Of a stretch of DNA of 58,821 nt, positions 1 through 57,608 are shown piece by piece. Origin of the DNA: a virus; the IMG/VR virus record IMGVR_UViG_3300037875_000261, one strand, 5' to 3'. How positions within the stretch are numbered: position 1 is the stretch's first letter; every line of letters starts with the position of its first letter. A program made the translations under genes and the position numbers. Below the pieces are notes generated by a model, which ran no database searches, had not been told where the DNA came from, and saw only the letters and a list, made by a program, of their open reading frames with translations.

Positions 1-1
1 T

Positions 2-33
2 CATGTCGTTGCCTTTCGTGGTGGTGGTGGTGG
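2..33 (-). repeat. CA-rich start-associated leader, copy at the window edge. It belongs to gene 58507..58788 if the contig is circular.
   Basis: Minus strand reads CCACCACCACCACCACGAAAGGCAACGACATG. It is identical to 58786-58821. Confidence 0.8.
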
Positions 34-35
34 AC

Positions 36-67
36 GGGCGACGCGCGCTGTCTGTCACGCGTCGCCC
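36..67 (-). terminator. GC-rich hairpin downstream of gene 94..471
   Basis: Perfect 10-bp stem gggcgacgcg (36-45) / cgcgtcgccc (58-67) with a 12-nt loop. It is followed on the minus strand by the CA-rich leader rather than a U-tract. Confidence 0.4.
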
Positions 68-93
68 CGCGCAGTCGCTCTTGACTCCGCCGT

Positions 94-471
94 TCAGATC
101 GCGGCCTTCTCGCACCGCCAGCAGTCGCACCCGTCAACGTGCTCGACCGCGTGATCGACTCGGGTGACGTTCCTGCCGTTGACCTCGAAGCGCGGGTCGG
201 CGGCGATCGCCGCCATCATGTCGTGCTCCCAACTCGCCGCGCCGTGCGGCGCGTTGCACCACATCACGACGGCGGTCGGCTTGCGCCTCGTTCCGTTGCC
301 GCTCTCGGCAACCTGATACCCAGGCTCGCGATAGTGGAAGGAATGATATCCCCCCGACTTCTGGAAGCCCGCCTTGCGCAGCAGCGTCGATACCTGCCTC
401 GCGATCGCGATACCCTTCGCCTGCGTGCGATCGAACCTCGCGCGCTTCTGCCTGATCGTTTCCTTGCTCAT
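94..471 (-). CDS. hypothetical early protein (125 aa)
   Basis: ORF-track frame 94..642 trimmed to the internal ATG at 471 (MSKETIRQ...), which sits directly after a perfect leader copy. The C-terminus has CDCWRC. No family recognised. Confidence 0.6.
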   Translation of the reverse strand: MSKETIRQKRARFDRTQAKGIAIARQVSTLLRKAGFQKSGGYHSFHYREPGYQVAESGNGTRRKPTAVVMWCNAPHGAASWEHDMMAAIAADPRFEVNGRNVTRVDHAVEHVDGCDCWRCEKAAI

Positions 472-497
472 GTCGTTGCCTTTCGTGGTGGTGGTGG
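469..497 (-). repeat. CA-rich start-associated leader copy
   Basis: CCACCACCACCACGAAAGGCAACGACATG fills the entire 26-nt gap between the stop at 498 and the ATG at 471. Confidence 0.85.
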
Positions 498-1307
498 TTA
501 CGCCGCAGCCCTGTAGTGCGGTCGCTTGAAGAAGGCGAAGTGCGCCTTGTCGTCCGAACGCGTGAGCGTCGCCCTGAGCGTCAGAGTCATGCCCTTGAGT
601 TGCGGCTCGCGGTCGCCGCCGTACTCGTCCTCGCGGATCCACTCGACCGAATCGAGCAGGCTGCTCGGCGCGTTGCCGTTGGCGAGCCAGACGCCGTACT
701 CAGTCTCGACCTTGACCGTGACGCGCCAGTTCGTGCCGTAGTCGCTGAACGTCTCCTTCGCCGACACGATCGTGCCGGTGAACTCGACGCGACCCTCGGG
801 CGCGTCGGTCGTCGCCTCGGGGTGCGCGATGTCGTTCGCGATCTTCATCGCGAGCGCGATCTGCGCCTCGCTGATCGAGCCGTACAGCGCGACCTTGTCG
901 GCGAGGTCGCGGCTGATGCGGTGATCGGCCTTGAGCGCCTTGGCGAGCTTCGGTCGGCAGGCGAGGAACGAAAGACCGGCAGCGGCTTTCGCGTCGGCGA
1001 TCGCCTTGCGCTCGGCGACCTTCTTCGCTCGCGCCGTGTCGCCGCGCTTCAACTTCTGGGCGTACGCCTTCGGGCTGTACGTCGTCTTCGAGTTGCGGGT
1101 ATCAGCGCCGTGACACTTGAAGCAGATCCCGCCATCGACGTACCAGGGACCGTAGCCCGAGCCGCCGCAGCGGTAGCACGGCGTCGGCACGACGATCTCG
1201 CCGGTGCCGGTCAGGTACGCGGCGAGCGCGTCGGGGTGCATCTCTTCGAGATACGCGAGCCCCTGCTCGTCGGTGCGGATCGGCTTGCGTTTCGTGGTGG
1301 TGGTCAT
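498..1307 (-). CDS. hypothetical protein with zinc-ribbon-like CxxC..CxxC (269 aa)
   Basis: Frame 498..1445 trimmed to the ATG at 1307 (MTTTTKRKP...) after a perfect leader. Motif CYRCGGSG...CFKCHG. Confidence 0.6.
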   Translation of the reverse strand: MTTTTKRKPIRTDEQGLAYLEEMHPDALAAYLTGTGEIVVPTPCYRCGGSGYGPWYVDGGICFKCHGADTRNSKTTYSPKAYAQKLKRGDTARAKKVAERKAIADAKAAAGLSFLACRPKLAKALKADHRISRDLADKVALYGSISEAQIALAMKIANDIAHPEATTDAPEGRVEFTGTIVSAKETFSDYGTNWRVTVKVETEYGVWLANGNAPSSLLDSVEWIREDEYGGDREPQLKGMTLTLRATLTRSDDKAHFAFFKRPHYRAAA

Positions 1308-1335
1308 GTCGTTGCCTTTCGTGGTGGTGGTGGTG
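1305..1335 (-). repeat. CA-rich start-associated leader copy
   Basis: CACCACCACCACCACGAAAGGCAACGACATG. The coding start ATGACCACCACCACGAAACGCAAG repeats most of the motif again. Confidence 0.85.
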
Positions 1336-1345
1336 AGAGTGTCGA

Positions 1346-1723
1346 CTACCTGATCAGGTACTCGACCCCGCCGAAGTCGACGGCTGTGTAGTCCATCGCA
1401 AGCTCGCCAGCGGCCTGCTCCCAGTCGATGCAGTTCATCGGCCACGTCGCGGTCGAGTCGAACATGCCGCAGTCCTCCGCAATCTCGCGGGCGTAGTCCT
1501 CGAAGTACGAGAACCGGATCAGCGCCTCGCCGTACTCCCAGTCGTCGGCGTAGCCCGAGGCGTCAGCCTCAAGCCCGTCGAGCGCGACGAGTTCGGCGTC
1601 GTCTTCGTAGTCGCGATCCTCGCCGAGTTCGTTCAGGAACTCGATGCGCTCGATGACGTCGCGCGAGTCGATCACGTCGAGGCGGTTGTGGATCTGTTTC
1701 GGGGCCGTGTAGAGGTTCGTCAT
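1346..1723 (-). CDS. acidic protein, ArdA-like anti-restriction candidate (125 aa)
   Basis: Very Asp/Glu-rich. The C-terminal pattern YFEDYAREIAEDCGM...IDWEQAAGELAMDYTAVDFGGVEYLIR resembles the ArdA family C-terminus from memory. ATG follows the leader. Confidence 0.45.
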   Translation of the reverse strand: MTNLYTAPKQIHNRLDVIDSRDVIERIEFLNELGEDRDYEDDAELVALDGLEADASGYADDWEYGEALIRFSYFEDYAREIAEDCGMFDSTATWPMNCIDWEQAAGELAMDYTAVDFGGVEYLIR

Positions 1724-1751
1724 ATCGTTGCCTTTCGTGGTGGTGGTGGTG
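1721..1751 (-). repeat. CA-rich start-associated leader copy
   Basis: CACCACCACCACCACGAAAGGCAACGATATG. Confidence 0.85.
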
Positions 1752-1762
1752 TCGGTCGCGGA

Positions 1763-2266
1763 TCAGTCGACGGCGAGCGGCCAGAAGCCGAAGTCAGCGC
1801 CGTCGCCTTCGTGCGACCCGAAGTAGTGACCGGCGGGCGCGAACTCTTCGAGCAGGTCGAACAGCTCTTCGAGGTCGTAGGCCGACGCGTCCGTGGTGTT
1901 GTAGTCGTCGCCGTGCGTCGCGACGCGACGCTCGATCTCGCCGAGCCAGATGTCCTCCCTGCCGTGCTTGAGCGGGTTAGCGTCGGGGCCGAGGCTTCGA
2001 CGCTCGCGCAGCACGTCAAGCTCGGACAGGAATGTCGGCACCAGATCGTTCACGTTCATCGTGCCCGTCGAGATGCTACCGGCCTCGGCGACAGTCCGCA
2101 GACGATCGCGCTCGAACTCGATCTGATCCTTCGCGAACCGGACCGACCCCGGCGAGAAGATGTGCGCGAGCAGTCCGCCGCGACCGGCGTGCTTGCGTGC
2201 GTCTTCGATGTACTCCTCGCATACGCGGATCGTGTCGAGGATCTCGTTGCGTTCTTCGTTCGTCAT
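1763..2266 (-). CDS. hypothetical acidic early protein (167 aa)
   Basis: Complete ORF with ATG after a perfect leader. No family recognised. Confidence 0.6.
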   Translation of the reverse strand: MTNEERNEILDTIRVCEEYIEDARKHAGRGGLLAHIFSPGSVRFAKDQIEFERDRLRTVAEAGSISTGTMNVNDLVPTFLSELDVLRERRSLGPDANPLKHGREDIWLGEIERRVATHGDDYNTTDASAYDLEELFDLLEEFAPAGHYFGSHEGDGADFGFWPLAVD

Positions 2267-2294
2267 ATCGTTGCCTTTCGTGGTGGTGGTGGTG
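2264..2294 (-). repeat. CA-rich start-associated leader copy
   Basis: CACCACCACCACCACGAAAGGCAACGATATG. The gap to the upstream stop at 2300 is 33 nt. Confidence 0.85.
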
Positions 2295-2299
2295 TCGGT

Positions 2300-2524
2300 C
2301 TACGCGTCGGGGTGGTCGACGTAGATGTCGGATCCCGCGTCGTAGTACCGGCCCTCGATCGGGTCGTAGTACAGCACGCGGCTGTCGGCAAACTGGAACG
2401 GACCCTCAAGCCCGGCCCGCCTCGGATGATCCGTCGTGTCGATGGGGCGCACGCTCGTACCCTGCGCCCGAAGCGCACGTTCGAGGAGCGCGGCGTGCTC
2501 GGTTCTGTTCGTGGAGCTGGTCAT
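2300..2524 (-). CDS. hypothetical small protein (74 aa)
   Basis: Frame 2300..2701 trimmed to the ATG at 2524 (MTSSTNRT...). Degenerate leader CCACCACTCCAAACCAAAGGACCACGACATG. Confidence 0.5.
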   Translation of the reverse strand: MTSSTNRTEHAALLERALRAQGTSVRPIDTTDHPRRAGLEGPFQFADSRVLYYDPIEGRYYDAGSDIYVDHPDA

Positions 2525-2564
2525 GTCGTGGTCCTTTGGTTTGGAGTGGTGGTTGGTGAGGGCG

Positions 2565-2747
2565 TTAGCGGGGTGCCGCGTCTGCGGCGGACTGCTTCGC
2601 AGCTTCGAGCTTCTCAACGAGCTTGTGTGCGCGGAGGGTCTTCGGGTTCCAGTGAGCGCGGTTGCCCATCGGGGGGGCGGACGGGCAGGCGGCTTTCGCA
2701 AGTGAGATGAGCTTGGCGAGGTCGCGCTGGGTGATCGTGATGTTCAT
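2565..2747 (-). CDS. hypothetical small protein (60 aa)
   Basis: Frame 2565..3002 trimmed to the ATG at 2747 (MNITITQRD...). Degenerate leader CACCACTTCAAACCAAAGGACACCAGCCATG. Confidence 0.45.
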   Translation of the reverse strand: MNITITQRDLAKLISLAKAACPSAPPMGNRAHWNPKTLRAHKLVEKLEAAKQSAADAAPR

Positions 2748-2778
2748 GGCTGGTGTCCTTTGGTTTGAAGTGGTGATG

Positions 2779-3048
2779 TCAGCGACCGAGGTGACCTCGG
2801 CGAGAGTCGGCGGAACGCTGGCTCGCGGTGAAGCTGCGCTTCTTGCCGTTGAGCCAGTAGAACTTGTATCCGCCCGGTGCGTCACTCGGGGCGAGAGGGT
2901 GGAGACGGCTGCGGACAGTGAGCCAGCAGGCGCTGTAGACCTGAGTGACGGTAACGTAGCCGCCGGGGTTCGCGAGGCTCGCGGCCCTGGCGCGGTAGTC
3001 AACGTCCTCCCAGGAGGAGCAGTCGAGCGAGATGTCGATCTGGTGCAT
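2779..3048 (-). CDS. hypothetical small protein (89 aa)
   Basis: Frame 2779..3279 trimmed to the ATG at 3048 (MHQIDISLD...). Leader ACACCACCACCACGAAAGCAGAAAGATCATG. Confidence 0.45.
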   Translation of the reverse strand: MHQIDISLDCSSWEDVDYRARAASLANPGGYVTVTQVYSACWLTVRSRLHPLAPSDAPGGYKFYWLNGKKRSFTASQRSADSRRGHLGR

Positions 3049-3083
3049 GATCTTTCTGCTTTCGTGGTGGTGGTGTTGTCGGT

Positions 3084-3305
3084 CTACGCGTTGCGGCCAG
3101 CCTCGAAGGCTGCCGCAAGCGCGTCGCGCAGACCCGAGACGCCGACGTCGTGGAAGTCGAGCGAGTCGCTGTTGCGGGTTTCGAGCGTCTCGATGAAGAG
3201 GTGCTCGGCGGCGATCTCCGCGAGGAGCGCGTCGGCGGGGGCGGTCGGGCGTCCCGGCAGCAGATGGGTCGCGGCCCATGTCGTGGTGGTGGTGTTGTTC
3301 GTCAT
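3084..3305 (-). CDS. hypothetical small protein (73 aa)
   Basis: Frame 3084..3458 trimmed to the ATG at 3305 (MTNNTTTTTW...) after a perfect leader. Confidence 0.55.
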   Translation of the reverse strand: MTNNTTTTTWAATHLLPGRPTAPADALLAEIAAEHLFIETLETRNSDSLDFHDVGVSGLRDALAAAFEAGRNA

Positions 3306-3333
3306 GTCGTTGCCTTTCGTGGTGGTGGTGGTG
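3303..3333 (-). repeat. CA-rich start-associated leader copy
   Basis: CACCACCACCACCACGAAAGGCAACGACATG, directly downstream (minus sense) of box copy A. Confidence 0.85.
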
Positions 3334-3362: not shown

Positions 3363-3364
3363 AC

Positions 3365-3583: not shown

Positions 3584-4063
3584 CTAGTAGTTCTCGACGA
3601 CGGTCACCGTGTCGGCGTGGGGCGCGATGATCTCGAAGGACGTCGAGATGTCGCGGCCCTTCGAGCGCACGATGTGCTCGGGCACGACTCGTTCGCGGTT
3701 GGCGTTTCGCTCAAGCGCGACCCGCATCGGGACCTTGACGTAGAGAAGCTCGATCTCGTAGCCGAAGCTCTTCGCATCGTTCATGCGTCGAAGCATCTTC
3801 TCCGAGTTCGTCCCCGTGCCGTCGACCAGCATGTCGGTGCCGCTCGCCATCGTCTCGGCAAGCAGCGCCTCGGCCTTGTCGTTGCTCCAGGCATGGAGCA
3901 CGCCGGGATCCTTCGGATCGTAGTCGGGGTGCGCCTCTTTGAAGAGGTCGGGGTCGATGACGGTCATGCGTCCGATCGGGTAGCGGTCGTTCGCGACCGT
4001 GCTCTTGCCCGAACCGGGCAGGCCCATCGTGAAGATCGCGAGCGGGGTGGTGGTCGTGTTCAT
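3584..4063 (-). CDS. P-loop kinase, zeta-toxin / AAA_33-like (159 aa)
   Basis: Walker A MGLPGSGKST, then IDPD and LVDGTG. Its size and layout are typical of zeta-toxin-like nucleotide/sugar kinases. Leader CCACCACCACCACCACCAAGGAGAACGACATG. Confidence 0.65.
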   Translation of the reverse strand: MNTTTTPLAIFTMGLPGSGKSTVANDRYPIGRMTVIDPDLFKEAHPDYDPKDPGVLHAWSNDKAEALLAETMASGTDMLVDGTGTNSEKMLRRMNDAKSFGYEIELLYVKVPMRVALERNANRERVVPEHIVRSKGRDISTSFEIIAPHADTVTVVENY

Positions 4064-4093
4064 GTCGTTCTCCTTGGTGGTGGTGGTGGTGGT

Positions 4094-4231
4094 CTAGCTG
4101 CGAGCCTCTTCGGCCATCGCGTCGAGTCGGTCCCTCGGGATGTCGGCCCATGTCGGGCGGCTGGCGAGGAACGCGGCGCGGATGTCTTCGACTTTGGTAG
4201 TCGTGTTGACGATGCGGATGGTGGTGGTCAT
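4094..4231 (-). CDS. hypothetical small protein (45 aa)
   Basis: Frame 4094..4303 trimmed to the ATG at 4231 (MTTTIRIV...). Leader CACCACCACCACCACGAAGGAGACAGCGATG. Confidence 0.4.
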   Translation of the reverse strand: MTTTIRIVNTTTKVEDIRAAFLASRPTWADIPRDRLDAMAEEARS

Positions 4232-4266
4232 CGCTGTCTCCTTCGTGGTGGTGGTGGTGTTGTTCG

Positions 4267-4290
4267 CCGGTCGGCTGTCCCGGCACTGCC
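4267..4290 (-). repeat. 24-nt intergenic repeat, second copy
   Basis: Identical to 3511-3534. Confidence 0.8.
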
Positions 4291-4305
4291 GAGGCCCCGT
4301 CACCT

Positions 4306-4331
4306 GTCACCCCTTAGCTATGGGGGGTGAC
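4306..4331 (-). promoter_or_regulatory. covarying stem-loop, copy C
   Basis: Minus strand GUCACCCC-CCAUAGCUAA-GGGGUGAC. The stem sequence differs from A and B but pairing is kept. The loop keeps the UAGCU core. Confidence 0.45.
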
Positions 4332-4377
4332 CTGCGCGGGGCTGGGTTCACGGTGTCGCTCGGGCCGTGCCCGAGAT

Positions 4378-4407
4378 GAAGAGGTGACGCGCTACCGTCG
4401 CTCTTCC
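4378..4407 (-). repeat. 30-nt intergenic box, copy C
   Basis: gaagaggtGacgcgctaccgtcgctcttcc, one mismatch to copies A and B. Confidence 0.8.
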
Positions 4408-4583
4408 CGTCGCCGCGTTTTCGTGCGCGGCTGCCCTCGGCTGTTGCTCTCCGGTGGGCGTTTCAGATTGTCAAAGATCTCGGGGGGCCGTCGCGGCCAG
4501 CCTCGCCGGGCGCATCACTGCGAGCCGGACTGGCGACAATACGGGAGGGGTGCGCCCGCATTCAAGGTTTCCGGGGATTGTTT

Positions 4584-4620
4584 CCCCGTATACCCCCCAC
4601 GGCCCTATACGGGGGCTTTT
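4584..4620 (+). terminator. hairpin plus T4 tract with no obvious plus-strand gene upstream
   Basis: 9-bp stem ccccgtata (4584-4592) / tatacgggg (4606-4614), then gcttttcc. Confidence 0.3.
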
Positions 4621-4662
4621 CCGCCCGTGGAGGCCCACGCGGGCGACCTCGCCCACATCGGC

Positions 4663-4705
4663 CCCCGGCCCCCGATCGCGCGAGGGACGCGGTCGGGGGC
4701 CGGGG
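4663..4705 (-). terminator. 13-bp perfect inverted repeat downstream of the last late gene
   Basis: ccccggcccccga (4663-4675) / tcgggggccgggg (4693-4705) with a 17-nt loop. It lies about 120 nt after the stop at 4827. Confidence 0.4.
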
Positions 4706-4722
4706 TCGGGGTCGGGGTCGGG
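4695..4722 (+). other. G-run array ((GGGGTC)n), a G-quadruplex-type motif
   Basis: Plus-strand G-runs GGGGG, GGGG, GGGG, GGGG and GGG separated by 1-2 nt. Confidence 0.5.
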
Positions 4723-4826
4723 CCGACAGGGAGTGAGGCGCGCGTCCCACCCGCAAGGTCGCGGTCATCCCTTGGGCAAGAGAGGCTGACCGCTACCAAA
4801 AACGAGACGCGCGCCCCGTGATCCCC

Positions 4827-49852: not shown

Positions 49853-52102
49853 TTATGACTCGACGGGCGCGAGGCCCGGCTGCCATCCGTGAACGAGAAA
49901 GCCGCCGAACGTCTGACGCGCTGCGCTCTTCTTCTCGCGTGCGAAGTGACTCATGCCCTGCACGTCGCCGATGATCGTCACGGCTTCCGCCGCGCGACTC
50001 ACCCCGGTGTAGAGCAGGTTGCGGTCGTGCATGATCCAATGTTTCGACGACGCGACGACGACGACCATCGGCCACTCACTCCCCTGCGCCTTGTGGATCG
50101 TCATCGCGTACGCCACCTCGACGTTGATGCGCTTCGCCGCCGGGATCGTAACCTCGCGACCGCTGTCGGTGATGAGGTTCATCGCGCCGCCCTTGAGCAT
50201 GCCGACGACCGTCGCCTGCGTGCCGTTGAACAGGTCAAGCTCGTAGTCGTTCTTCGTCCAGATCACGCGGTCGCCGATAACCGGCTTCGGCGATCGACCG
50301 TCGGGCGTCGTCTCGGGCGGCGCGTTGCCGAGCAACCGCTGCCGCAGCTTCTGTAGCTCGACGTTCAGCGCCCACGTTCCGAGCGGTCCCTTCTTCATCG
50401 GCGCGAGCACCTGAATGTCCCACGCCGGATCGAGATGCCGGTTGAACGGTTGCAGCGGAGTCGGCGCGGTGACGATCGACTCGATCATCATCGCGACCAT
50501 CGCCGCCGTTCCCTCTTCGTGTCCCTTCTCGGTTCGCTGCACCCCCCACGGCGGCGTCTCCTGCATGACGACGACGCCGTCGAGCAGCGCGGTCGTGTTG
50601 ACCGCGAGCACGCCAGCCTGACGCACGATCTCCGTGAGCACATGCACCGACTCGGGGTACGAATCCCGAGCCGCGAGGATGTCGCGCAGGATCGCGCCCG
50701 GCCCGACGCTCGGGATCTGGTGGTGATCGCCGACGAGCAGCAGTCGCGTCGTCGGCTTCAGCGCATCGAGGAGCGAACGCATCAGGCGCACGTCGACCAT
50801 CGACACCTCGTCGAGTACGACGAGCCCGACGTCCAGCGGGTTGCCCGAGTTGCGCGTGAACGTGAAGCCACCCGTCTCGCTGTCGAATATCGGCTCAAGC
50901 AGGCGATGGATCGTCTGCGCCGAACGCCCGGTCGCCTGCGACAGTTTGCGCGCGGCCTTGCCGGTCGGCGCGCACAACTCGACGCTGACGCCAGCCGACT
51001 CGGCGATCGAGCACACGGCGTCCATCGCGTACGTCTTGCCGACGCCCGCGCCCCCCGAGATCACGCTGTACCTGCGCCGTGCGAACCCTTCGAGCGCAGC
51101 GGCCTGCCCGTCGTTCAGGGACGCGACGAGCGCGCGCAGCTTGGGCGTGGACGCACCGCGTAGCGGGGCGACGCCGCCGTCGTCGAGCCCCCGACGCAGC
51201 GCGCTGAACACGCTGAACTCCGCCGCCGCGAGCCGGGCGTCGGCGACGACCTCGGCACCGAGCGGCGATCGGTCGACGTGGATCGAGCCGTCGGCGATCA
51301 GGGACGCGAGCGCCCCGGCGATCTTGTCCTCGCCGTCGATCGTGTCGGGCCGAAGCTCCTGCGTCGACTCGTCCAGCAGCGCCTCGCGCGTCGTCCATGT
51401 GTTCCCGTTCTGCGATATGCGATCAATGCAGAACGCGACGCCAGCGTAGAGCCGCTGCGGGTCGGTCGACTTGACGCCCATCTTGCGCGCGACGGTGTCG
51501 ACCGTCTTGAAGCCGAAGCGGGGGATCTTGCCGATCAGCATGTAGGGATCACTGCCGACGAGCGCGGGCGCGTTGTCGCCGAGCTTGTTGACGATCGCCT
51601 GAGCCTGCGCGTTCGACCAGCCGACGTCGGCGAGCGCAGCGAGCGCGTCGAAGTATGCGCGCTTCTCGTTCCAGAGCGCAGCCGCGTCGGTGACGATACC
51701 GATCGTCACGCCCGAGCGTTCGGCGACTTCGGCGGGGTACTCGCACAGCGCACTCGCGACGCTGCCGTCGGTCGAGAGGGACAGCGCGGCGTCGACGACC
51801 TTCTTGGCGCGCGACGGGCCGAGCCCCTTGAACCGCTTGTCAGTCGCGAGCATGTGCGCGAGCGCGTCGGGACTCTCGTCCATCTTGACGAGCCCAGTCT
51901 CGACCTCGAACTGCTTGCCGAACTTCGGATGACGGGTCCACTTGCCCGTGACTTCGAGCTTGTCGCCCGGCTGCGCGGCGACCTTGCCGCTGAAGCGGAT
52001 CTCGCCGCCGCCCTCTTCGGCGAGAACGCCAGCCATGAACGGCGAGTCTGGGTTGCAGAAGAACACGCGGCCAACGACGCCGCGACGGATTTCGGTTGTC
52101 AT
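49853..52102 (-). CDS. RecD-like SF1 DNA helicase (749 aa)
   Basis: Walker A ISGGAGVGKT, Walker B VVLDEVSMV, LLLVGDHHQIPSVGPG, and a C-terminal YAMTIHKAQGSEW motif. Confidence 0.85.
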   Translation of the reverse strand: MTTEIRRGVVGRVFFCNPDSPFMAGVLAEEGGGEIRFSGKVAAQPGDKLEVTGKWTRHPKFGKQFEVETGLVKMDESPDALAHMLATDKRFKGLGPSRAKKVVDAALSLSTDGSVASALCEYPAEVAERSGVTIGIVTDAAALWNEKRAYFDALAALADVGWSNAQAQAIVNKLGDNAPALVGSDPYMLIGKIPRFGFKTVDTVARKMGVKSTDPQRLYAGVAFCIDRISQNGNTWTTREALLDESTQELRPDTIDGEDKIAGALASLIADGSIHVDRSPLGAEVVADARLAAAEFSVFSALRRGLDDGGVAPLRGASTPKLRALVASLNDGQAAALEGFARRRYSVISGGAGVGKTYAMDAVCSIAESAGVSVELCAPTGKAARKLSQATGRSAQTIHRLLEPIFDSETGGFTFTRNSGNPLDVGLVVLDEVSMVDVRLMRSLLDALKPTTRLLLVGDHHQIPSVGPGAILRDILAARDSYPESVHVLTEIVRQAGVLAVNTTALLDGVVVMQETPPWGVQRTEKGHEEGTAAMVAMMIESIVTAPTPLQPFNRHLDPAWDIQVLAPMKKGPLGTWALNVELQKLRQRLLGNAPPETTPDGRSPKPVIGDRVIWTKNDYELDLFNGTQATVVGMLKGGAMNLITDSGREVTIPAAKRINVEVAYAMTIHKAQGSEWPMVVVVASSKHWIMHDRNLLYTGVSRAAEAVTIIGDVQGMSHFAREKKSAARQTFGGFLVHGWQPGLAPVES

Positions 52103-52148
52103 GATTTTCTCTCGGTGGTGGTTACGGGTTGTGGATGGATCGCCGGTT

Positions 52149-52195
52149 GCCTCGCTCTTGCGAGGCGACGTCCATGCCGACGCGTATCGCGTCGG
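52149..52195 (-). terminator. two tandem hairpins upstream of the helicase leader
   Basis: gcctcgc-tctt-gcgaggc (52149-52166) and ccgacgcg-tat-cgcgtcgg (52177-52195). Confidence 0.35.
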
Positions 52196-52219
52196 TGTTC
52201 GATGTCGAAGCCGTCGCGG

Positions 52220-52648
52220 TTACGCGCCGAGCTTCTTCGCTGCCATGCCCAGGAACGCGCCCGCGAGCACCTGCGCCTCGGCGCGGCTGCCAGCGAGATG
52301 CACCTGTACGTTCTGCGCGACGCTGACCTCGGCGACGAATCCCATCACGACGGATGGCGATACTCGCGAGGTGTACCTGCCCGCCATGATCTCGCGCACG
52401 CCCGCCTCGACGATCACACATCGGAAGTCGAACGCGCGCAGGCGTTCAAGCTCGCGATAGAACCGAGCGCGTTCACGCAGCACGGTTCCGGTCCAGTCGT
52501 CGAGAGACTTGCGCTCGATCGCGACGCGATGTTCGAGCCCCCTGATCGAGTAGTCCCCGCTGTCGAGCTTCGCGCGTTCGAGCGTGACGCCCCGCTGGCC
52601 CTCGAAGGTCCACGGTGTACGCTCGCGCGTGTCGACGACGACGATCAT
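52220..52648 (-). CDS. ERCC4/Mus81-type nuclease, a possible junction resolvase (142 aa)
   Basis: VVVDTRE...SGDYSI...AIERKSLDD matches the ERCC4 signature (DxRE, GDY, ERKxxxD). Confidence 0.65.
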   Translation of the reverse strand: MIVVVDTRERTPWTFEGQRGVTLERAKLDSGDYSIRGLEHRVAIERKSLDDWTGTVLRERARFYRELERLRAFDFRCVIVEAGVREIMAGRYTSRVSPSVVMGFVAEVSVAQNVQVHLAGSRAEAQVLAGAFLGMAAKKLGA

Positions 52649-52753
52649 GCCGCGACCGTACGACTGCGATGGGAGTGAAACAAGAAAGGCCCCCCGACAA
52701 CGACGTGGTGCGCACGTTGCCGGGGAGCCCCCGAGAGAGTTGACGCCATCAGC

Positions 52754-53479
52754 CTACGCTGTGGGCGTCCAGTCCTCAAGCCCACCAGCCGACGCGTTCC
52801 CGTCGCCGTGGAGGAACGCCTGACTGGCGCTGGTGTCGATGCCGAGCGGGTCGATGCCCTGCGGCGGACCCGGGGGCGCGGGCGGCGTGGGCGTCGCGAG
52901 AGGATCGCCGACGATCCCAGGCGCGGGCGGTGCGACCTGGGTCTGCGGCGGTGCGGGCGGCGATCCGCCAGCGGGTGCGCCACCGACGATCGCGCTCGTC
53001 TGGGACTGGAACCTCTGCCGCAGTTGCGCGAGCAGATCAGTATCGACGGGCTTGAAGCCGCTGCCCCGCTCGACCGGGCGGTCGGCGTTCGGATTGATCC
53101 ACTCCGCACGGTAGCTCACGTTGCCCTGCCACTCGCTGCGCTGCACGTCGATGATGACGACGACGTCGGGCGGATCACCCGCGAGCAGATCCCAGTTTCC
53201 ATTCCAGATCCCCGCGTCGGCGAGCCCCTTGACCGCGCCGTCGTTCATGTTGCCATCCTTCTTGATGACATACGTCCGGTTGTAGGTGTAGTACCCCGGG
53301 GGCCACGGCTGCGACCATGTGCCCTCGCCCTCGGGGTGCCACTTCTGGATGATGCCGAACTGGATCGCGATCGCTACCGACCCCGAGTCCTTCTTCTCGA
53401 TCGTCCAAGACAACGGCTTCGCACGGTAGCTGCCCGCGCCTTGCTGCTCGTCGATCTGCGTCTGTGCATTCTCGTTCAT
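52754..53479 (-). CDS. hypothetical protein with a Pro-rich C-terminus, in the SSB/annealase-partner position (241 aa)
   Basis: Frame trimmed to the ATG at 53479 (MNENAQTQ...). It lies next to the Sak4-like ATPase. Function not established. Confidence 0.45.
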   Translation of the reverse strand: MNENAQTQIDEQQGAGSYRAKPLSWTIEKKDSGSVAIAIQFGIIQKWHPEGEGTWSQPWPPGYYTYNRTYVIKKDGNMNDGAVKGLADAGIWNGNWDLLAGDPPDVVVIIDVQRSEWQGNVSYRAEWINPNADRPVERGSGFKPVDTDLLAQLRQRFQSQTSAIVGGAPAGGSPPAPPQTQVAPPAPGIVGDPLATPTPPAPPGPPQGIDPLGIDTSASQAFLHGDGNASAGGLEDWTPTA

Positions 53480-53529
53480 AGTTTTCTTTCTGCGCACCGA
53501 ATCGATGTGGTGCGCGGTGGTGGTGAAGG

Positions 53530-54387
53530 TTACTGCGTGATGCCGAGCGCGGACCAGACCGCGCCGGGGTTCTCAAGTTGGAAAGGAAGCGCGACCTGAG
53601 AGACGCGCGACTTCGCGATGTGGGTCGGCATCTCAGCCGAGTAGATAGTTCGGGTGCCGCTGCCCTGGGCCTTGCCCTCCTTCGCGTACACGTCGTACGC
53701 GACGAACAGAACGTGGTCGGCCCACTGCTTGACGCGATCCCGAACGGAACCGCGCCCCTTCTTGTCGCCCGAGAACAGGTGAGGCTCCCATCGGATGTAG
53801 TCCTCGCCCATCGGGTTCGGCACGGGCGACGCGACTTCGTGAGCGATCAGGCAGACGTTGATACCCTTGCTCCAGATCCGGTCGAGGTCGGCGAGCAGTC
53901 CGTTGAACTCTTCGTACACGAACTGCCACCCCTTCCCCCATCCGAAGCCTTCGATCGAGTCGACGCTCTTGCCCTTCTCGGTCGAGCGCGTCGAGATGAC
54001 GTGCTCCTTCGCGAGTTCTTCGGCGACGGTCACCGTGTCGACCACGATCGACTTGACGCCCTTCGGCGGGCTGGCCTCGATCGACGCGAGCATGCCGCGC
54101 AACGTGAGCCAGTCGGTGACGTCGCCAGCGTTGGCGATGGGAAGGTGGGTCGCACCGTTCTCGACGTCGAACCAGAGGGCACCGGGCAAGTACATCGCGA
54201 GCGTGCTCTTGCCGATGCCTCCGGTCCCGTAGATGACAATGCGTTCCGCTGTACTGCGGACGCCTGTCGTGATCTTGAGCGGCAGCGCCGTCGGCACGGA
54301 TGCGCGCGGCGACTGCTTCAAGGTTGCGGCGGGGGCCGACGGCGGTGCGGGTGCAGGCGCGGGCGGCGGGGCGGGTGTTTTACTCAT
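53530..54387 (-). CDS. RecA-like/AAA_24 (Sak4-like) ATPase (285 aa)
   Basis: Frame trimmed to the ATG at 54387. Walker A IYGTGGIGKST, Walker B-like SIVVDTV. Confidence 0.65.
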   Translation of the reverse strand: MSKTPAPPPAPAPAPPSAPAATLKQSPRASVPTALPLKITTGVRSTAERIVIYGTGGIGKSTLAMYLPGALWFDVENGATHLPIANAGDVTDWLTLRGMLASIEASPPKGVKSIVVDTVTVAEELAKEHVISTRSTEKGKSVDSIEGFGWGKGWQFVYEEFNGLLADLDRIWSKGINVCLIAHEVASPVPNPMGEDYIRWEPHLFSGDKKGRGSVRDRVKQWADHVLFVAYDVYAKEGKAQGSGTRTIYSAEMPTHIAKSRVSQVALPFQLENPGAVWSALGITQ

Positions 54388-54433
54388 GAACGAATCCTTG
54401 TGTCCTCTGAGCGAGGTGGTGGGTTGTGAAGTG

Positions 54434-55924
54434 CTACGAGAGTTCCGGGTGGAGTTTCTCGCGGCGGCGAAAGCCGGTCGGGACGATACCCGATTGCGGG
54501 CGTACGTTGCTCTCACAAAGTGAGAAGAAGTCGCACGAATACTGTTCGCACGCTCCGGGGTTGCGGTGCAGCAGACCGTTCTGCTCGGCGTAGCTGATCA
54601 GATCGACCTGCGACTTGAGGTTGTGCATCAGCTCGTCGTAGTCGCCCTCGGTGCGAGTGATCTCGCGACGGGCGAAGTAGAACTCGGGACGCTCCCCGAT
54701 GTCCTGCGTGAGTCGTGCGCCGTACATCTCGTTCGATTCCTGACCGACGGCGATCGCGTCTTCGATGTGCGATTCGTGAAACTGCTCGCCGCAGTAGTCG
54801 GCGTAAGCGGGCGAGATCGTGTCGCCGAATTCCGCGCGCATCCTCTCGACGTCCTTCTTGATCAGACGCTTCGGCTTGATCGTCGGCTTCTTCGTCACGT
54901 CGAGCAGGATGAACGACGGGCGCTCACCGAGCGCAAGCGCGTACAGACCGACCTGCGTGTTCAGCCGCCAGCGTCGCCAGTACATCGAGTCGTCGCCGAG
55001 CGAGTCGCCGGTCGTCTTGATCTCCTTCACGCCGATCCGCCCGGTCGCCTTGTGCCGCAGCACGTCGTCGATCGCGCCCTTGTAGGTGACGCCTTCGTGC
55101 TCGATCTCGAATTCGTGCTCGGCACCGACCGACTCGTACGCGTCGTCGTGCTGCGACCAGTACCAGCCGTGCGCGGCGTACATGCGACGCAGCTTCTCGT
55201 TCCAGAGTTCGTTCGGCGCGTGCTTCGCGATCGCGAGGTACGGATCGAGCAGAGCACTTAGCGCGCTGTCGCCGCTCGCCGAGGTGGCTTCGTGCGCCTT
55301 GTGCCAGCACGTCCCGACAGCGAGCGCCTCCTTCTCCTCGTCGGCGTCGAGTTCGATGCGCTCGACGTACTGCCACTGGTACTTGCGCAGGCACGACCGC
55401 GCGGTCGTGAGCAGCGAGTTCGTGTACGACCCGACCGACTGCGTGGTGGCGTGTCGCCTCGGCACGACCTCCTCGTCGGGCGCTACCTCGACGCGGCTGC
55501 CCGGCGACCCGAACTGCCGCCGGTCGGCGACCATCCCCGACAGCGTGCCGCGCTTCGTCGTCAGCCCGTTGCGACCGACGCCCTCGTATGTAAGGCGACG
55601 CTCCTTCGCGGGGCTGTGCGCCATCGAGAGCGGAGCGTACGCGCGGAGCATGGAATTCGGCGTCGTGTCCCCCTTGCCGACGACGACGACGTCGTCGCCG
55701 CACTGCATGTCGATGAGTTCGTGCAGCGCCTCGACGACGGTCAACTCGAACGACCGCTTCTTCTTCGGCGGCCTCTCCTTGTCGGCGCACACGTTGCACA
55801 ACCAGCGCCCCGAGACGACGCCGACGTGCGCCTCGTCCTTCGTGGCCCCCGCGTACGTCCCGCTGATATGCGCTTCGCACATTTCGCAGCAGAGGTAATC
55901 GGTTTCATTCGTGGTGGTATTCAT
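54434..55924 (-). CDS. PD-(D/E)XK nuclease, Cas4/RecB-like, with a C-terminal Cys cluster (496 aa)
   Basis: Frame trimmed to the ATG at 55924 (MNTTTNETD...). GAIDDVL...VKEIKTTG is the D...ExK core. C-terminal cluster CEQYSCDFFSLC. N-terminal zinc-ribbon-like CCEMCE...CNVC. Confidence 0.6.
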   Translation of the reverse strand: MNTTTNETDYLCCEMCEAHISGTYAGATKDEAHVGVVSGRWLCNVCADKERPPKKKRSFELTVVEALHELIDMQCGDDVVVVGKGDTTPNSMLRAYAPLSMAHSPAKERRLTYEGVGRNGLTTKRGTLSGMVADRRQFGSPGSRVEVAPDEEVVPRRHATTQSVGSYTNSLLTTARSCLRKYQWQYVERIELDADEEKEALAVGTCWHKAHEATSASGDSALSALLDPYLAIAKHAPNELWNEKLRRMYAAHGWYWSQHDDAYESVGAEHEFEIEHEGVTYKGAIDDVLRHKATGRIGVKEIKTTGDSLGDDSMYWRRWRLNTQVGLYALALGERPSFILLDVTKKPTIKPKRLIKKDVERMRAEFGDTISPAYADYCGEQFHESHIEDAIAVGQESNEMYGARLTQDIGERPEFYFARREITRTEGDYDELMHNLKSQVDLISYAEQNGLLHRNPGACEQYSCDFFSLCESNVRPQSGIVPTGFRRREKLHPELS

Positions 55925-55929
55925 ATCCT

Positions 55930-56427
55930 TCAGTTTCCTTTTCTCGCACAGACCGGGCCGATGCCCAGTTCGATGCTTTCTGGTGTAGTGAGTTTGCGAT
56001 TGCAGCGGACGCACGCACCTGCTCGAAGCAGCTCGTAGCCTTCCGCGTGCCAGAATCCTTCGTCGCCGCGCAGCGCGAGGTCGAGCATCATCGTGAGCTT
56101 GCGCTCGACGATACTGAACGCCTCGCTCCACGCGTAGCCGTCCACGACTCCGCGCGACCCGTCGCCCCGGTGCTTCCTCCACACGTTCGCCTTGCCCTTG
56201 CCTTCCGCGTCGTCGTCCCAGAAGGCGACGCCCATGTAGTCGGCGGTGTTGTCGGAACCGACGAGCAGCGCGATGATGCGCTTCCCCGCGAGCCCGCCCT
56301 TCAACGCCGTGCGCACCTCGACGGTGAAGTGCGCGCGGTCGGGATGCGACACGGTGTAGGTTCCGTTCTGCAAGCGCGGGGCGGCAGAGCGCATGGCTTC
56401 GAGAATCCGGTCAGCCTCTCTTTTCAT
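55930..56427 (-). CDS. hypothetical protein with a DUF6011-like C-terminus (165 aa)
   Basis: The ATG at 56427 follows GAAAGGAACCACCACC. C-terminal CVRCNRKLTTPESIELGIGPVCARK. Confidence 0.5.
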   Translation of the reverse strand: MKREADRILEAMRSAAPRLQNGTYTVSHPDRAHFTVEVRTALKGGLAGKRIIALLVGSDNTADYMGVAFWDDDAEGKGKANVWRKHRGDGSRGVVDGYAWSEAFSIVERKLTMMLDLALRGDEGFWHAEGYELLRAGACVRCNRKLTTPESIELGIGPVCARKGN

Positions 56428-56445
56428 GGTGGTGGTTCCTTTCAA

Positions 56446-56736
56446 TTACTTCTTCGTGGTGGTTCCGAGCGCGCGGCGTGTACAGCCGAGCGCCTTCGAT
56501 ACGGCTGTCGCCTGCGAGGCCGTCGGCGTTGCCTCGCCGAGTTCCCAGCGCGCGAGCGTCGAGCTAGTGGCGGGCGTGCTGAACTGCACGCGCAACATCG
56601 CCGCCAGCATCGTCCGCGTCATGCCCTTCAGTTCACGACGATCGCGCATCGCGACGCCGTTCCATCCGAGCCGACCGGGATCAGACTTCGGTCGCCCGCC
56701 CCGCTTCGTCGCGCCGCGTCGTGTCGTCTTCTTCAT
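56446..56736 (-). CDS. XRE-family HTH regulator (96 aa)
   Basis: RRELKGMTRTMLAAML...TLARWELGEATPTASQATAVSKALG. Confidence 0.6.
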   Translation of the reverse strand: MKKTTRRGATKRGGRPKSDPGRLGWNGVAMRDRRELKGMTRTMLAAMLRVQFSTPATSSTLARWELGEATPTASQATAVSKALGCTRRALGTTTKK

Positions 56737-56737
56737 G

Positions 56738-57545: not shown

Positions 57546-57608
57546 TCCTGTCCTTTCGTTCGGTGGTGGTTCGCCGACCGACGAACGTGTCGCCCGGCAC
57601 CGCGTAAA

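Follow-up and report, generated by a model that had tools for sequence, protein, structure and literature searches.

Tails of CA repeats at the 5' end of an mRNA provide standby sites for ribosomes, are optimal at 16 to 18 nt, and outperform AU tails by about 11-fold (PMC5934652). C/A-rich and ACA elements located just 5' of the Shine-Dalgarno (SD) sequence are translational enhancers (PMC3879156). In the window analyzed here, a 58,821-nucleotide stretch of DNA from an uncultured phage (IMG/VR record IMGVR_UViG_3300037875_000261), the same 32- to 37-base leader, a "CCA-repeat + ribosome-binding site" with a G-free tract, fronts six or seven unrelated early genes. Like the GcvB targets, the yifK and dppA ACA motifs, and synthetic (CA)n tails, this leader carries a G-poor C/A tract directly 5' of the SD. 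The tract is predicted to be single-stranded, as in CA standby sites, and measures 15 to 20 nt against the experimental optimum of 16 to 18 nt, while the CA-rich codons that follow the AUG of the leader genes parallel downstream CA-multimer enhancers. However, each known enhancer is a single site, present in an enterobacterial mRNA or a synthetic construct, with CA or ACA as the unit, whereas the leader, known here from sequence, is a fixed 29- to 37-nt cassette built on CCA and present on six to seven genes of a GC-rich phage.

Two families of repeated phage sequences are also comparable. The first-pass annotation cited the start-associated sequences (SAS and ESAS) of Cluster K mycobacteriophages (PMC3203893) as an analogy with a different sequence, and the analogy is apt. 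Both elements are short, asymmetric, SD-containing repeats a few nucleotides 5' of ATG, and both occur in a single orientation, before nonstructural genes only, in front of unrelated gene families, and are absent from other genomes. The phage of this window is nonetheless unrelated to Cluster K, and the SAS consensus GGGATAGGAGCCC is indeed absent here. The leader also has a longer conserved part that is dominated by the upstream G-free tract rather than by the bases flanking the SD, and ESAS-type 17-bp inverted repeats are absent. The second family, the T4-type PeSLs (PMC2839356, PMC4122927), consists of repeated intergenic cassettes that end in an SD and ATG before small early ORFans, and recombination from copy to copy yields insertions and deletions between close relatives, as with the leader. 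PeSLs, however, carry a strong sigma-70 promoter and a terminator stem-loop, whereas the 26- to 39-nt gaps that hold the leader contain neither; it would be a pure translation-initiation module within a polycistronic unit. A true PeSL-like cassette of about 98 nt in another GC-rich phage (L416) illustrates this contrast. The leader belongs with these known kinds of element (Cluster K SAS, PeSL, and C/A-rich enhancers and standby sites), and its copies, like T4 PeSLs, mediate the gain and loss of a cassette, though they have neither a promoter nor a terminator.

Placement of the leader before early start codons

The window was searched for CCACCACCACCACGAAAGGCAACGAYATG with up to three mismatches allowed. 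Seven exact matches, six of them distinct, were found, all on the minus strand (2-30, 469-497, 1305-1333, 1721-1749, 2264-2292, 3303-3331, and 58786-58814), and there were no further matches with one to three mismatches. No match occurred in 100 dinucleotide-preserving shuffles, and the chance expectation is 0. All seven copies lie on the coding strand with their 3' end forming the ATG of an early ORF, in agreement with the initial report of the string at starts 471, 1307, 1723, 2266, 3305, and 58788, and a search of the window for exact copies away from a start codon returned none. The ORFs downstream have the GC3 signature typical of coding sequence, and both JGI and ENA, in annotating this phage, called their starts independently; their expression is presumably early. 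An orphan CA tract at 3436-3422 lies inside a duplicated noncoding unit and is followed by GGATCC, with no SD or ATG. Searches of phages and genomes outside this phage did not find the exact motif, so conservation across relatives cannot serve as evidence.

The copies, all on the minus strand, precede diverse genes. The leader at 469..499 occupies the entire 26-nt gap before a 125-amino-acid (aa) ORF (471->94), and that at 1305..1335 sits in a 38-nt gap before a 269-aa ORF (1307->498) with the N terminus MTTTTK. Two copies have T at -3: 1721..1752, in a 39-nt gap before a 125-aa ArdA-like ORF (1723->1346), and 2264..2295, in a 33-nt gap before a 167-aa ORF (2266->1763). The copy at 3303..3333 precedes a 73-aa DUF6900 ORF (3305->3084; N terminus MTNNTTTTT), lies directly 3' of a repeated element, GGAAGAGCGACGGTAGCGCGTGACCTCTTC, and has a longer gap of 278 nt that contains repeats. 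At the contig ends the leader is a repeat, R. The copy at 1..37 reads CCGTCC + (ACC)n + GAAAGG + CAACGAC + ATGA and leads in variant A to a 141-aa gene that is missing from the window and in variant B to a 93-aa gene; the copy at 58786..58821 precedes the 93-aa ORF (58788->58507) and forms the second edge of a presence/absence bubble. The 89-nt gap before the 4/58788 copy includes a perfect 12-bp GC hairpin (35..67, minus strand; GGGCGACGCGUG-8 nt-CGCGCGUCGCCC) directly 5' of the 1..37 leader. This hairpin has no U-tract and could be an attenuator, a stabilizer, or a processing hairpin.

The stop-to-start gaps at 2266, 1723, 1307, and 471 thus reproduce the range of 26 to 39 nt given originally, and they are filled almost entirely by the motif. 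The accompanying argument, that such gaps leave no room for both a promoter and a terminator, holds, and a search of 1-5200 returned no sigma-70-like promoter. The noncoding head of the early region (4265..4826, minus strand) holds the late-operon terminator (4819-4802) and a candidate promoter, TTGAAT-18-TATTGT (~4563-4534, minus strand); in this context the leaders are read as internal to a single polycistronic early transcript. It is highly improbable that the leader acts in transcription, whether as a compact phage-specific or alternative-sigma promoter, as a C-rich, G-poor, rut-like Rho-loading site, or as a G-rich structure on the template strand. The tract does resemble rut sites in being C-rich, G-free, and unstructured. 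In certain other phages it directly follows -10-like elements, so that the mRNA probably begins with the tract, and in another phage a promoter-like motif is reused immediately before start codons. Nevertheless, the 26- to 39-nt gaps start at the upstream stop codon, 16 nt is far below the size of a rut site, TANNNT is absent at leaderless-start spacing, and none of the phage proteins was recognized as an RNA polymerase or a sigma factor.

A probable translation-initiation cassette

Taken with the data below, this placement makes it probable that the motif serves early genes as a portable cassette for translation initiation, that its copies are nearly identical by descent, and that they double as recombination homology. 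The cassette would have four parts. The first is a 15- to 16-nt tract, (CCA)n, composed solely of C and A. Unable to pair with itself, it would remain single-stranded within a 65% GC mRNA, serving as an open standby or enhancer platform for the 30S subunit, probably via protein S1. The second is GAAAGG, which would act as a 6-bp SD by pairing with CCUUUC in the 3' tail of a 16S rRNA ending in ...CCUCCUUUCU. The third would be a 7-nt A/C-rich spacer, and the fourth the AUG, frequently followed by ACC or ACG (Thr) codons that may lengthen the open zone. With its own copy of the leader, every cistron of the packed early operon could be translated strongly and independently of its neighbors.

Predicted RNA structures are consistent with the first part. 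The predicted unpaired fraction of the CA tract was 0.83 to 0.92 in most copies and 0.62 to 0.63 at 3305 and 4231, whereas replacement of the tract by random genome segments gave 0.31 to 0.41 (about 38%). The gain in SD/AUG accessibility due to the tract was modest: predicted SD-to-AUG accessibility was about 0.1 higher in seven copies, in which 4 to 15% of random replacements matched the tract, and there was no gain at 4231. In 100-nt start-site windows, predicted folding was -17.4 kcal/mol for leader genes versus -28.6 kcal/mol for late genes, and a 91-nt stretch around one leader was predicted to fold with just -9.1 kcal/mol.

GAAAGG had been described initially as merely a weak SD, which fails for a 16S tail ending in ...CCUCCUUUCU-3'. 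Against such a tail (...CCUUUCU-3'), which is a common one, pairing was -7.4 kcal/mol, equal in strength to late AAGGAG sites (-7.4 to -8.8 kcal/mol), and only an E. coli-type tail gave a weak value (-3.2); the strength of GAAAGG is thus conditional on the 16S tail of the host. The use of AAGGAG by other genes was confirmed at 24257 and 36204, both of which are late genes. The 7-nt spacer from SD to ATG, CAACGAC, is identical among the exact copies. Part of it, AACGAC, recurs among unrelated phages, and both features could reflect sequence-specific recognition rather than mere descent.

Related but degenerate leaders precede about 10 further genes, all of them early or middle and none late. 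On the minus strand, the first early gene (45 aa, MTTTIR) is preceded by AACAACACCACCACCACCAC-GAAGGAG-ACAGCG-ATG (4229..4264), a zeta-toxin/AAA_33-like kinase (4063->3584, MNTTTT) by (ACC)6AA-GGAG-AACGAC-ATG (4061..4093), an 89-aa ORF by ACAACACCACCACCAC-GAAAG-CAGAAAGATC-ATG (3046..3079), and a 74-aa ORF by CACCAACCACCACTCCAAACCAAAGGACCACGAC-ATG (2522..2558). Middle genes with starts at 58191, 57545, 56427, 54387, 53479, and 52102 have looser leaders of the form "ACCACCACC + purine-rich SD" (52100..58215, minus strand). These variants differ in sequence and share one architecture, a CA tract, a purine SD, 5 to 9 nt, and ATG. The sense strand has 27 runs of 10 nt or more that consist only of C and A. 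Of these, 22 are no more than about 35 nt from an early or middle start (17 upstream of the start and 5 inside the first codons), no run stands before a late gene, and the whole antisense strand has three. In a comparison set of 160 unrelated viral loci, 4% of C/A-only runs precede a start site versus 1.3% of random positions.

The core of the tract also fronts start codons across many unrelated phages. The 15-mer CACCACCACGAAAGG gave at least 120 matches in IMG/VR, 66% of which are followed by ATG or GTG at 4 to 10 nt (about 20% expected). The phages that bear it range from 40 to 70% GC, and a single locus holds four such leaders in 1.1 kb. A homologue 42% identical to the 269-aa gene, located in another contig, has its own leader, composed of a CA tract, GGAG, and ATGACTACC.

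These findings bear on another explanation, that the leader is an ordinary ribosome-binding site copied in serial local duplications, with a functionless CA tract and repetition by neutral hitchhiking. Such an origin would account for the greatest likeness being between neighboring copies, for the restriction of the exact motif to the present phage among the phages and genomes searched, and for the modest gain in predicted accessibility. We regard it as very unlikely. The downstream proteins are not paralogues, so the genes were not duplicated along with their leaders, and the codons of their N termini, MT(T/N)n, are independently CA-rich. Moreover, diverged leaders retain a G/U-free tract of 10 to 20 nt, the combination of tract and SD recurs at start codons of many unrelated phages, and CA tails of this length are strong standby sites experimentally (PMC5934652).

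It is also unlikely that the leader is a shared target of a sequence-specific trans-acting factor that coregulates the early genes, with identity kept by selection for recognition. Candidates for such a factor would be a phage or host RNA-binding protein comparable to the T4 repressor RegA, an endoribonuclease such as T4 RegB, or a G/U-rich small RNA that, as GcvB does, acts on C/A-rich enhancers. As in T4, a common sequence at early-gene initiation regions could permit coordinated shutoff. Approximately 27 to 29 nt 5' of the ATG, the pairing-free spacer included, are identical in five copies, with a C/T difference at -3 in the other two; the motif is limited to one temporal gene class; and C/A-rich enhancers are known targets of small RNAs (PMC3879156). 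One sense-strand GUGGUGGUG, noncoding and complementary to the tract, is present at 45864-45856, but a lone 9-mer complement is close to chance (about 0.2 per strand). Unlike RegB targets, the exact leader lacks GGAG, the RegB cleavage motif. No RNA-binding, RegA/RegB-like, or nuclease-toxin domain was recognized among the early proteins, and no Rfam family was found in the window. In addition, architecture and not sequence is kept in the variant leaders and in other phages, and the pairwise identity of neighbors runs into their flanks, a signature of descent or conversion. The broader proposal of the first-pass annotation, an element acting at the RNA or translation level, is retained, and among its options the standby platform is favored by the predicted single-strandedness of the tract, its restriction to start codons, the occurrence of the 15-mer elsewhere, and the match to CA tails (PMC5934652).

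Gene presence and absence between two leaders

The ends of the window share a 37-nt "terminal overlap," which corresponds to two leader copies that flank the 141-aa gene missing here. The equation of 58788 with position 4 in the first-pass annotation is consequently true for this contig only, since elsewhere two distinct copies flank this gene. A 37-nt copy stands on either side of the 141-aa gene; the two are identical, and their identity ends precisely at the repeat edges. JGI 3300072015 and 3300037842 hold the gene-containing allele A as contiguous sequence, and allele B, without the gene, is contiguous within an 18.5-kb contig of JGI 3300038326. The length of the JGI contig fits the sum 58,784 + 460 + 127 + 78 = 59,449. 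Both alleles were established from assemblies, with junctions at k = 127 and k = 55; given these junctions and the interior position in the 18.5-kb contig, chimeric assembly is an unlikely origin. The apparent circular junction of the window is this presence/absence polymorphism, and the occurrence of gene-containing and deleted alleles in other metagenome contigs indicates that cassettes are gained and lost through the repeats. The same region has another repeat-mediated indel, one unit of about 115 nt.

Identity between copies is longest for neighbors. The leaders at 2266 and 1723 are exactly alike over 43 nt and those of the 141-aa gene and 58788 over 37 nt, both extending into the flanks, while other pairs of copies with C at -3 (3305, 1307, 471, the 141-aa gene, and 58788) are exactly alike over 31 to 35 nt. 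The identity of adjacent copies exceeds any plausible functional core and belongs to the DNA-level side of the leader.

This raises an explanation in which the selected function itself lies at the DNA level. The leaders would be recombination adaptors for the capture, loss, and exchange of early (anti-defense or ORFan) cassettes between coinfecting relatives, a promoterless counterpart of the T4 PeSLs or the boundary sequences of lambdoid phages, in which the translation signals are cargo and not the cause of identity. In keeping with it, some natural populations have the gene between the two identical 37-nt copies and others lack it, the ~115-nt indel lies nearby, and the leader-flanked genes are unrelated small ORFs, an ArdA-like protein among them. 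The phage encodes a Sak4-like/exonuclease module, another GC-rich phage pair has PeSL-like repeated cassettes with differing gene content, and PeSL itself is a precedent (PMC2839356). We nevertheless judge this explanation improbable. Direct repeats of such length always recombine, so polymorphism is no proof of selection for recombination, and the single leader-bounded indel observed does no more than remove or add a resident gene. No case of exchange with a different phage was seen, the exact motif was found in no other genome searched, and the strict 7-nt SD-ATG placement and codon-level CA bias point to translation as the constrained function.

As a translation-initiation cassette, the leader would owe the near-identity of its copies to spread and homogenization via duplication and recombination and not to a need for each base. 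Recombination at leaders would then be a consequence of identity, possibly one advantageous to the phage. The identical copies of 32 to 37 bp would provide homology by which whole early-gene cassettes are deleted and presumably also inserted, probably aided by the Sak4-like annealing protein and exonuclease of the phage. Candidate actors on these repeats, all on the minus strand, are a PDDEXK exonuclease (55924->54434), the Sak4-like/AAA_24 annealing protein (54387->53530), and an ERCC4 nuclease (52648->52220).

Leader copies in the early-gene array

The window is a near-complete genome of an uncultured tailed phage with a GC content of 65.5%, and nearly all of its genes lie on the minus strand. 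The structural proteins recognized are a portal, a major head protein, and proteins of tape-measure and fiber size; those of replication and recombination are a primase, a RecD-like helicase, a PDDEXK exonuclease, a Sak4-like/AAA_24 annealing protein, and an ERCC4 nuclease. Positions 1 to 8000 had no match in a nucleotide search against deposited phages, and at the protein level, the portal and the helicase had only relatives of about 32% identity or less (at most 25% for the portal), which indicated no host. A widespread 384-aa protein was also tried for host assignment; a reference-genome scan found Proteobacteria, Planctomycetes, Bacteroidetes, and one Microbacterium at similar identity, which made it uninformative. 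No tRNAs or Rfam families were found in the window. An unusual phage cargo, a 769-aa protein with a sulfatase domain (PF00884; 36214 to 38523, minus strand), is encoded among otherwise unannotated genes that separate the replication module from the head module. The apparently sole plausibly coding plus-strand ORF (29473 to 30075) encodes 200 aa and has no family match, and an 810-aa ORF of unrecognized function (40195 to 42627) contains a 90-nt repeat unit at 41713 to 41878, with two 76-nt copies, 99% alike, that start 90 nt apart.

The late operon closes at a terminator (4819 to 4802, minus strand) that is followed by a 540-nt noncoding stretch. An array of small minus-strand ORFs then runs from 4231 to 1 and, with falling coordinates from 58788, leads on to the genes for replication and recombination; judging by gene order and content, this array is probably early. 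Its recognized products are a zeta-toxin/AAA_33-like kinase, a DUF6900 protein, and a weak ArdA-like anti-restriction protein, and the ORFs preceded by the repeated leader encode 45 to 269 aa, mostly of unrecognized function.

The first-pass annotation described a near-identical leader directly upstream of early start codons, and this observation was confirmed. The 29-mer CCACCACCACCACGAAAGGCAACGAYATG has seven exact matches, all on the minus strand, and none in 100 shuffles; a search allowing up to 3 mismatches gave no matches beyond these. All seven end with the start codon (ATG) of an ORF whose GC3 is typical of coding sequence, and the same starts were called independently by the JGI and ENA pipelines on identical contigs. 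Since two matches (2 to 30 and 58786 to 58814) fall inside the 37-nt overlap of the window ends, the window has six distinct copies, with start codons at 471, 1307, 1723, 2266, 3305, and 58788/4. Four of the intercistronic gaps had been put at 26 to 39 nt with little besides the motif in them; they measured 33, 39, 38, and 26 nt, and the motif is nearly their entire length. The ATGs at 4231, 4063, 3048, and 2524 follow looser relatives of the leader, and still looser leaders, composed of ACCACCACC and a purine-rich Shine-Dalgarno (SD) sequence, precede 58191, 57545, 56427, 54387, 53479, and 52102.

Each leader consists, in order, of a (CCA)n tract of 15 to 16 nt that is free of G and U, the sequence GAAAGG, the spacer CAACGA(C/T), and ATG. 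The C/A-only tract stops 0 to 1 nt ahead of GAAAGG in every exact copy, the SD-ATG distance is 7 nt, and the tracts of variant leaders are 10 to 20 nt long. Every copy is in sense orientation, and all are confined to the early/middle region. Behind them, many ORFs open with ACC, ACG, or AAC codons (MTTTIR, MNTTTT, MTNNTTTTT, MTTTTK, MSTTTE, and MTTRTY). Because the proteins behind the leaders are unrelated to one another, the C/A-rich zone thus extends beyond the start codon through independent codon choice. Genome-wide, 27 C/A-only runs of at least 10 nt are present on the sense strand, of which 17 lie just 5' of an SD and start codon and 5 lie in the first codons. These 22 are all in the early/middle region. 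Late genes have none upstream, and just 3 such runs occur on the antisense strand. Mononucleotide shuffles yield 33.5 runs, so that 27 is no enrichment, and the signal is one of placement, not number. Among 160 unrelated viral loci, only 4% of such runs lie ahead of a start site, versus 1.3% for random positions.

Predicted translation initiation at the leaders

A GC-rich setting makes open initiation sites hard to achieve. The tract is predicted to be unpaired with a probability of 0.83 to 0.92 in most copies (0.62 to 0.63 at 3305 and 4231), and random segments of the same genome substituted for it are predicted at 0.31 to 0.41. With the tract in place, predicted accessibility from SD to AUG rises by about 0.1. 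Predicted folding energies of 100-nt windows centered on the start are -17.4 kcal/mol for leader genes versus -28.6 kcal/mol for late genes, and the 91 nt surrounding the 2266 leader are predicted to fold at merely -9.1 kcal/mol, in a 65% GC genome. GAAAGG had been considered a weak SD. That is correct only relative to an enterobacterial-type 16S rRNA tail: against the E. coli-type tail, pairing is worth -3.2 kcal/mol, whereas against the CCUUUC of a tail ending in CCUCCUUUCU-3' it would be worth -7.4 kcal/mol; the range for the late AAGGAG sites is -7.4 to -8.8 kcal/mol.

CA-repeat unstructured tails act as ribosome standby sites, with an optimum of 16 to 18 nt and an increase of about 11-fold over AU tails, and the same work ties them to C/A-rich enhancers and to CA multimers 3' of start codons (PMC5934652). 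C/A and ACA elements just 5' of the SD are strong translational enhancers (PMC3879156). The leader has the C/A-rich, G-poor tract directly 5' of the SD, the tract is predicted to be single-stranded as in those systems, and its length (15 to 20 nt) fits the optimum for CA tails. Position, composition, predicted single-strandedness, and length are consistent with a leader that works like these enhancers and standby tails. A translational role is plausible from sequence and folding models. The interpretation in the first-pass annotation, an action on RNA or translation, is supported in part. The mechanism that we consider most likely, and probable overall, is that the leader is a self-contained translation-initiation cassette, in which the open tract (a standby/enhancer platform), a full-strength SD 7 nt from the AUG, and the AUG itself would give every cistron of a packed, GC-rich polycistronic early mRNA efficient, context-independent ribosome entry. 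Recombination would have spread and homogenized the copies, producing their near-identity, and the near-identical leaders would in turn be breakpoints for gain and loss of early-gene cassettes. The leader would then be a natural multicopy standby site or enhancer of the CA type outside the enterobacteria and, given its GC-rich setting, a compact "insulated RBS" that could be taken over as it stands in designs for high-GC hosts.

An element acting on transcription, such as a promoter or rut site, is extremely improbable: the gaps of 26 to 39 nt begin at the upstream stop codon and leave no room for one, nothing promoter-like was seen in positions 1 to 5200, and neither a phage polymerase nor a sigma factor was recognized. 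The invariant spacer would suit recognition by a sequence-specific trans-acting regulator of the RegA/RegB or GcvB kind. We regard such a regulator as unlikely, as no candidate factor was found, the leader sequence is not conserved elsewhere, and identity between copies spills over into the flanks. The targets of T4 RegB/RegA have a GGAG cleavage motif in the SD, whereas the exact leader has GAAAGG and no GGAG, and neither Pfam nor PHROGs searches revealed RegA/RegB-like domains.

Other candidate control sequences were seen in the window. GGAAGAGCGACGGTAGCGCGTGACCTCTTC, which has an outer inverted repeat (GAAGAG...CTCTTC), occurs on the minus strand at about 4402 to 4372, 3477 to 3448, and 3362 to 3333; the first early gene and the 3305 leader lie downstream of these copies. 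A short segment, GGCAGTGCCGGGACAGCCGACCGG, is common to about 4290 and 3533. Binding of a regulator or activity as an unconventional promoter is a possible role of these repeats. A 470-nt noncoding region at 45806 to 46276 (minus strand) contains G-rich repeats (GGGGCACCAC/GGGGGCACCGC units between runs of G8 to G10) and a TTGACT box; it may serve as an origin or in the control of middle/late genes. Within it (45864 to 45856) is the only sense-strand GUGGUGGUG, which is complementary to the CA tract; as a source of an anti-leader RNA it was rejected, a single 9-mer being near chance expectation.

Presence and absence of the 141-aa gene

The ends of the window share 37 nt (CCGTCC, the leader, and ATGA), referred to here as R, and the start at 58788 had been equated with position 4. 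This identification holds only for the present contig, and the overlap is not a plain circularization overlap: both ends carry R, and the R copies flank a 141-aa gene in a longer allele (allele A). At one end of the 59,449-bp JGI contig Ga0427874_000122, the order is the end of a 125-aa gene, a hairpin, R, the 141-aa ORF, R, and a 93-aa gene. The two R copies there are identical and 460 nt apart, and identity ceases exactly at both repeat edges. At the opposite end of the same contig, hairpin, R, and 93-aa gene are joined directly (allele B). Its length fits an allele A circle plus a 127-nt k-mer overlap and a 78-nt run into allele B (58,784 + 460 + 127 + 78 = 59,449).

Both alleles are found in other assemblies. 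A 52.9-kb contig of JGI 3300072015 also has allele A uninterrupted, and two short contigs that start within the 141-aa gene carry its right-hand junction (gene end, R, and 93-aa gene). For allele B, the uninterrupted sequence lies well inside an 18.5-kb contig of JGI 3300038326, and an ENA contig (k = 55) terminates in the B junction. The window starts with R and stops with R, exactly as is expected of a unitig bounded by an A/B bubble at any k above 37. As an R-bounded unitig, it is without the 460-bp segment that includes the 141-aa gene; it is not the complete circle of the longer allele, which is about 59,244 bp with seven exact leaders. A short "direct terminal repeat" taken as a sign of completeness can thus be an internal repeat that bounds a polymorphic cassette. 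The hairpin directly 5' of the contig-end leader (35 to 67, minus strand) has a perfect 12-bp GC stem and an 8-nt loop, with no U-tract, and the 93-nt stretch that includes it has a folding z-score of -2.5.

The copies themselves bear marks of recombination. The 2266 and 1723 leaders share an exact stretch of 43 nt, the two R copies share 37 nt, and other pairs of exact copies with C at -3 share 31 to 35 nt; neighbors are the most alike. Shared identity extends to the upstream flank and codons 2 and 3, where common function is not expected, and this is the signature of descent or gene conversion. Two tandem-like noncoding units of about 115 nt separate the kinase gene from the 3305 leader (3340 to 3565, minus strand), one of which ends in an orphan CA tract (3436 to 3422) followed by neither an SD nor an ATG. 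Strain L164 has one hybrid unit in place of the two, which is a second repeat-mediated indel near the leaders and points to unequal crossing-over. Phage annealing proteins are described as recombining short and diverged homologies. The Sak4-like annealing protein, the PDDEXK exonuclease, and the ERCC4 nuclease are phage encoded, and they may act on the leaders.

These data bear on what the leader was selected for. One reading is that it was selected as a recombination adaptor; the polymorphism demonstrates this activity but not selection for it, and we consider the reading improbable. It is doubtful, too, that the phage lineage keeps the leader on purpose as a dual-purpose adaptor, a promoter-less cassette junction that would combine strong, context-independent translation with about 35 bp of homology for capture, loss, and swap of early anti-defense genes between coinfecting genomes by the Sak4-like protein and exonuclease. 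If true, this would be a functionally integron-like gene-cassette system without an integrase. An integron attC site is an imperfect inverted repeat, whereas the leader is a nonpalindromic direct repeat, and no integrase was recognized among the phage proteins.

Natural populations show directly that identical translation leaders double as breakpoints for early-gene gain and loss. Such breakpoints help to explain the turnover of small early/anti-defense ORFan arrays. The evidence from populations for this leader-mediated cassette turnover and the miscalled "terminal repeat" are the most useful new facts.

Leaders of other phages and known repeat systems

The first-pass annotation had proposed a search for the motif in relatives; the viral, metagenome, and genome collections have no exact match to its 21-mer. 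The motif is also absent from the closest helicase relatives among the comparison loci (L084, L081, and L083; 53 to 62% identity). Hints only came from L084, which has one CA-tract leader, and L081, which has a different repeated C-rich leader. The latter (helicase 59% identical; 4990 to 5330, minus strand of the locus) has the form CCCCAGCCCCCAGCCAAGCC-ATGACCATCGCC, is without an obvious SD, and precedes two or more small genes that are adjacent. A search of viral contigs for relatives of the 269-aa early protein was unsuccessful, and those of the 167-aa protein were too distant to help.

A scan of IMG/VR with the 15-mer CACCACCACGAAAGG found at least 120 places. Among the matches listed, an ATG or GTG lies 4 to 10 nt 3' of the 15-mer in 79 (66%), versus about 20% expected, the contigs span 40 to 70% GC, and ACC codons often follow the start. 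One locus has four leaders of this type in 1.1 kb. At several loci, the tract directly follows a -10-like element, so that it probably begins the mRNA there. Another version of the leader, CCACCACCACCCAAC-GGAG-...-ATGACTACC, is present in a contig that encodes a homologue, 42% identical, of the 269-aa early protein. The architecture thus recurs across phages, and the exact sequence does not. An ordinary ribosome-binding site carried along by neutral hitchhiking is contradicted by these convergence data and is highly unlikely.

An early-gene array in a JGI 3300031997 contig (L212, positions 1 to 7200; 61% GC) has a different repeat, GGAAACTTT-N(14-17)-CCGTATACCCTTCC, abutting ATGAGCA on at least nine genes. 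It resembles a leaderless-mRNA promoter (ECF-like GGAAC...CGT), and a similar motif, GGAAACCTT...CCGTATTGT, lies at about 4570 to 4534 in the window. A leaderless-promoter reading of our leader, modeled on this repeat, was rejected, since no TANNNT is present at the needed distance.

An analogy to the start-associated sequences (SAS) of Cluster K mycobacteriophages had also been drawn. The likeness in placement, orientation, and gene class stands: both repeats lie near the ATG of nonstructural genes in one orientation. In sequence the two differ, as that annotation had said: the 13-bp SAS consensus GGGATAGGAGCCC has no matches with up to 2 mismatches. About half of the SAS sites have upstream 17-bp imperfect inverted repeats (ESAS), whereas no recurrent inverted repeat was found upstream of the leaders, a hairpin being present at one copy only. 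With the consensus and ESAS repeats absent and the phage unrelated (no nucleotide match to deposited phages; portal at most 25% identical), the leader is not a member of this family.

The leaders behave in part like T4 PeSLs. Those sit upstream of small nonessential early ORFs in a plastic region; the leaders likewise precede small early ORFs, in a region with two indel polymorphisms, and PeSL-type indels between close relatives by copy-copy recombination are matched by the 141-aa gene, both alleles of which are present in separate contigs. In contrast, a PeSL has a sigma-70-like early promoter and a terminator/attenuator stem-loop, whereas no promoter-like site was found in window positions 1 to 5200 and the leaders are unstructured, with only the copy at 1 to 37 adjoining a hairpin. 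The leaders extend the PeSL idea, that of regulatory repeats as shuffling sites, to elements without a promoter or terminator.

Two contigs of another GC-rich phage pair (67% GC; GCA_024449685.1, positions 1 to 10100, and GCA_024449665.1) have about 20 small genes, each after a near-identical cassette of about 98 nt. This cassette has a stem-loop, CGGGGAGGAG-TGTTGAC-CTCCTCCCCG, overlapping a TTGACC -35 element, then GATACT, and lastly an SD-less leader rich in C and A. The two contigs differ in gene content, which together with the repeated cassette indicates a PeSL-like system in a high-GC phage and underlines that our leader is the minimal, translation-only version. Several ORFs in these two contigs were mis-started by gene callers at an ATG within the promoter.
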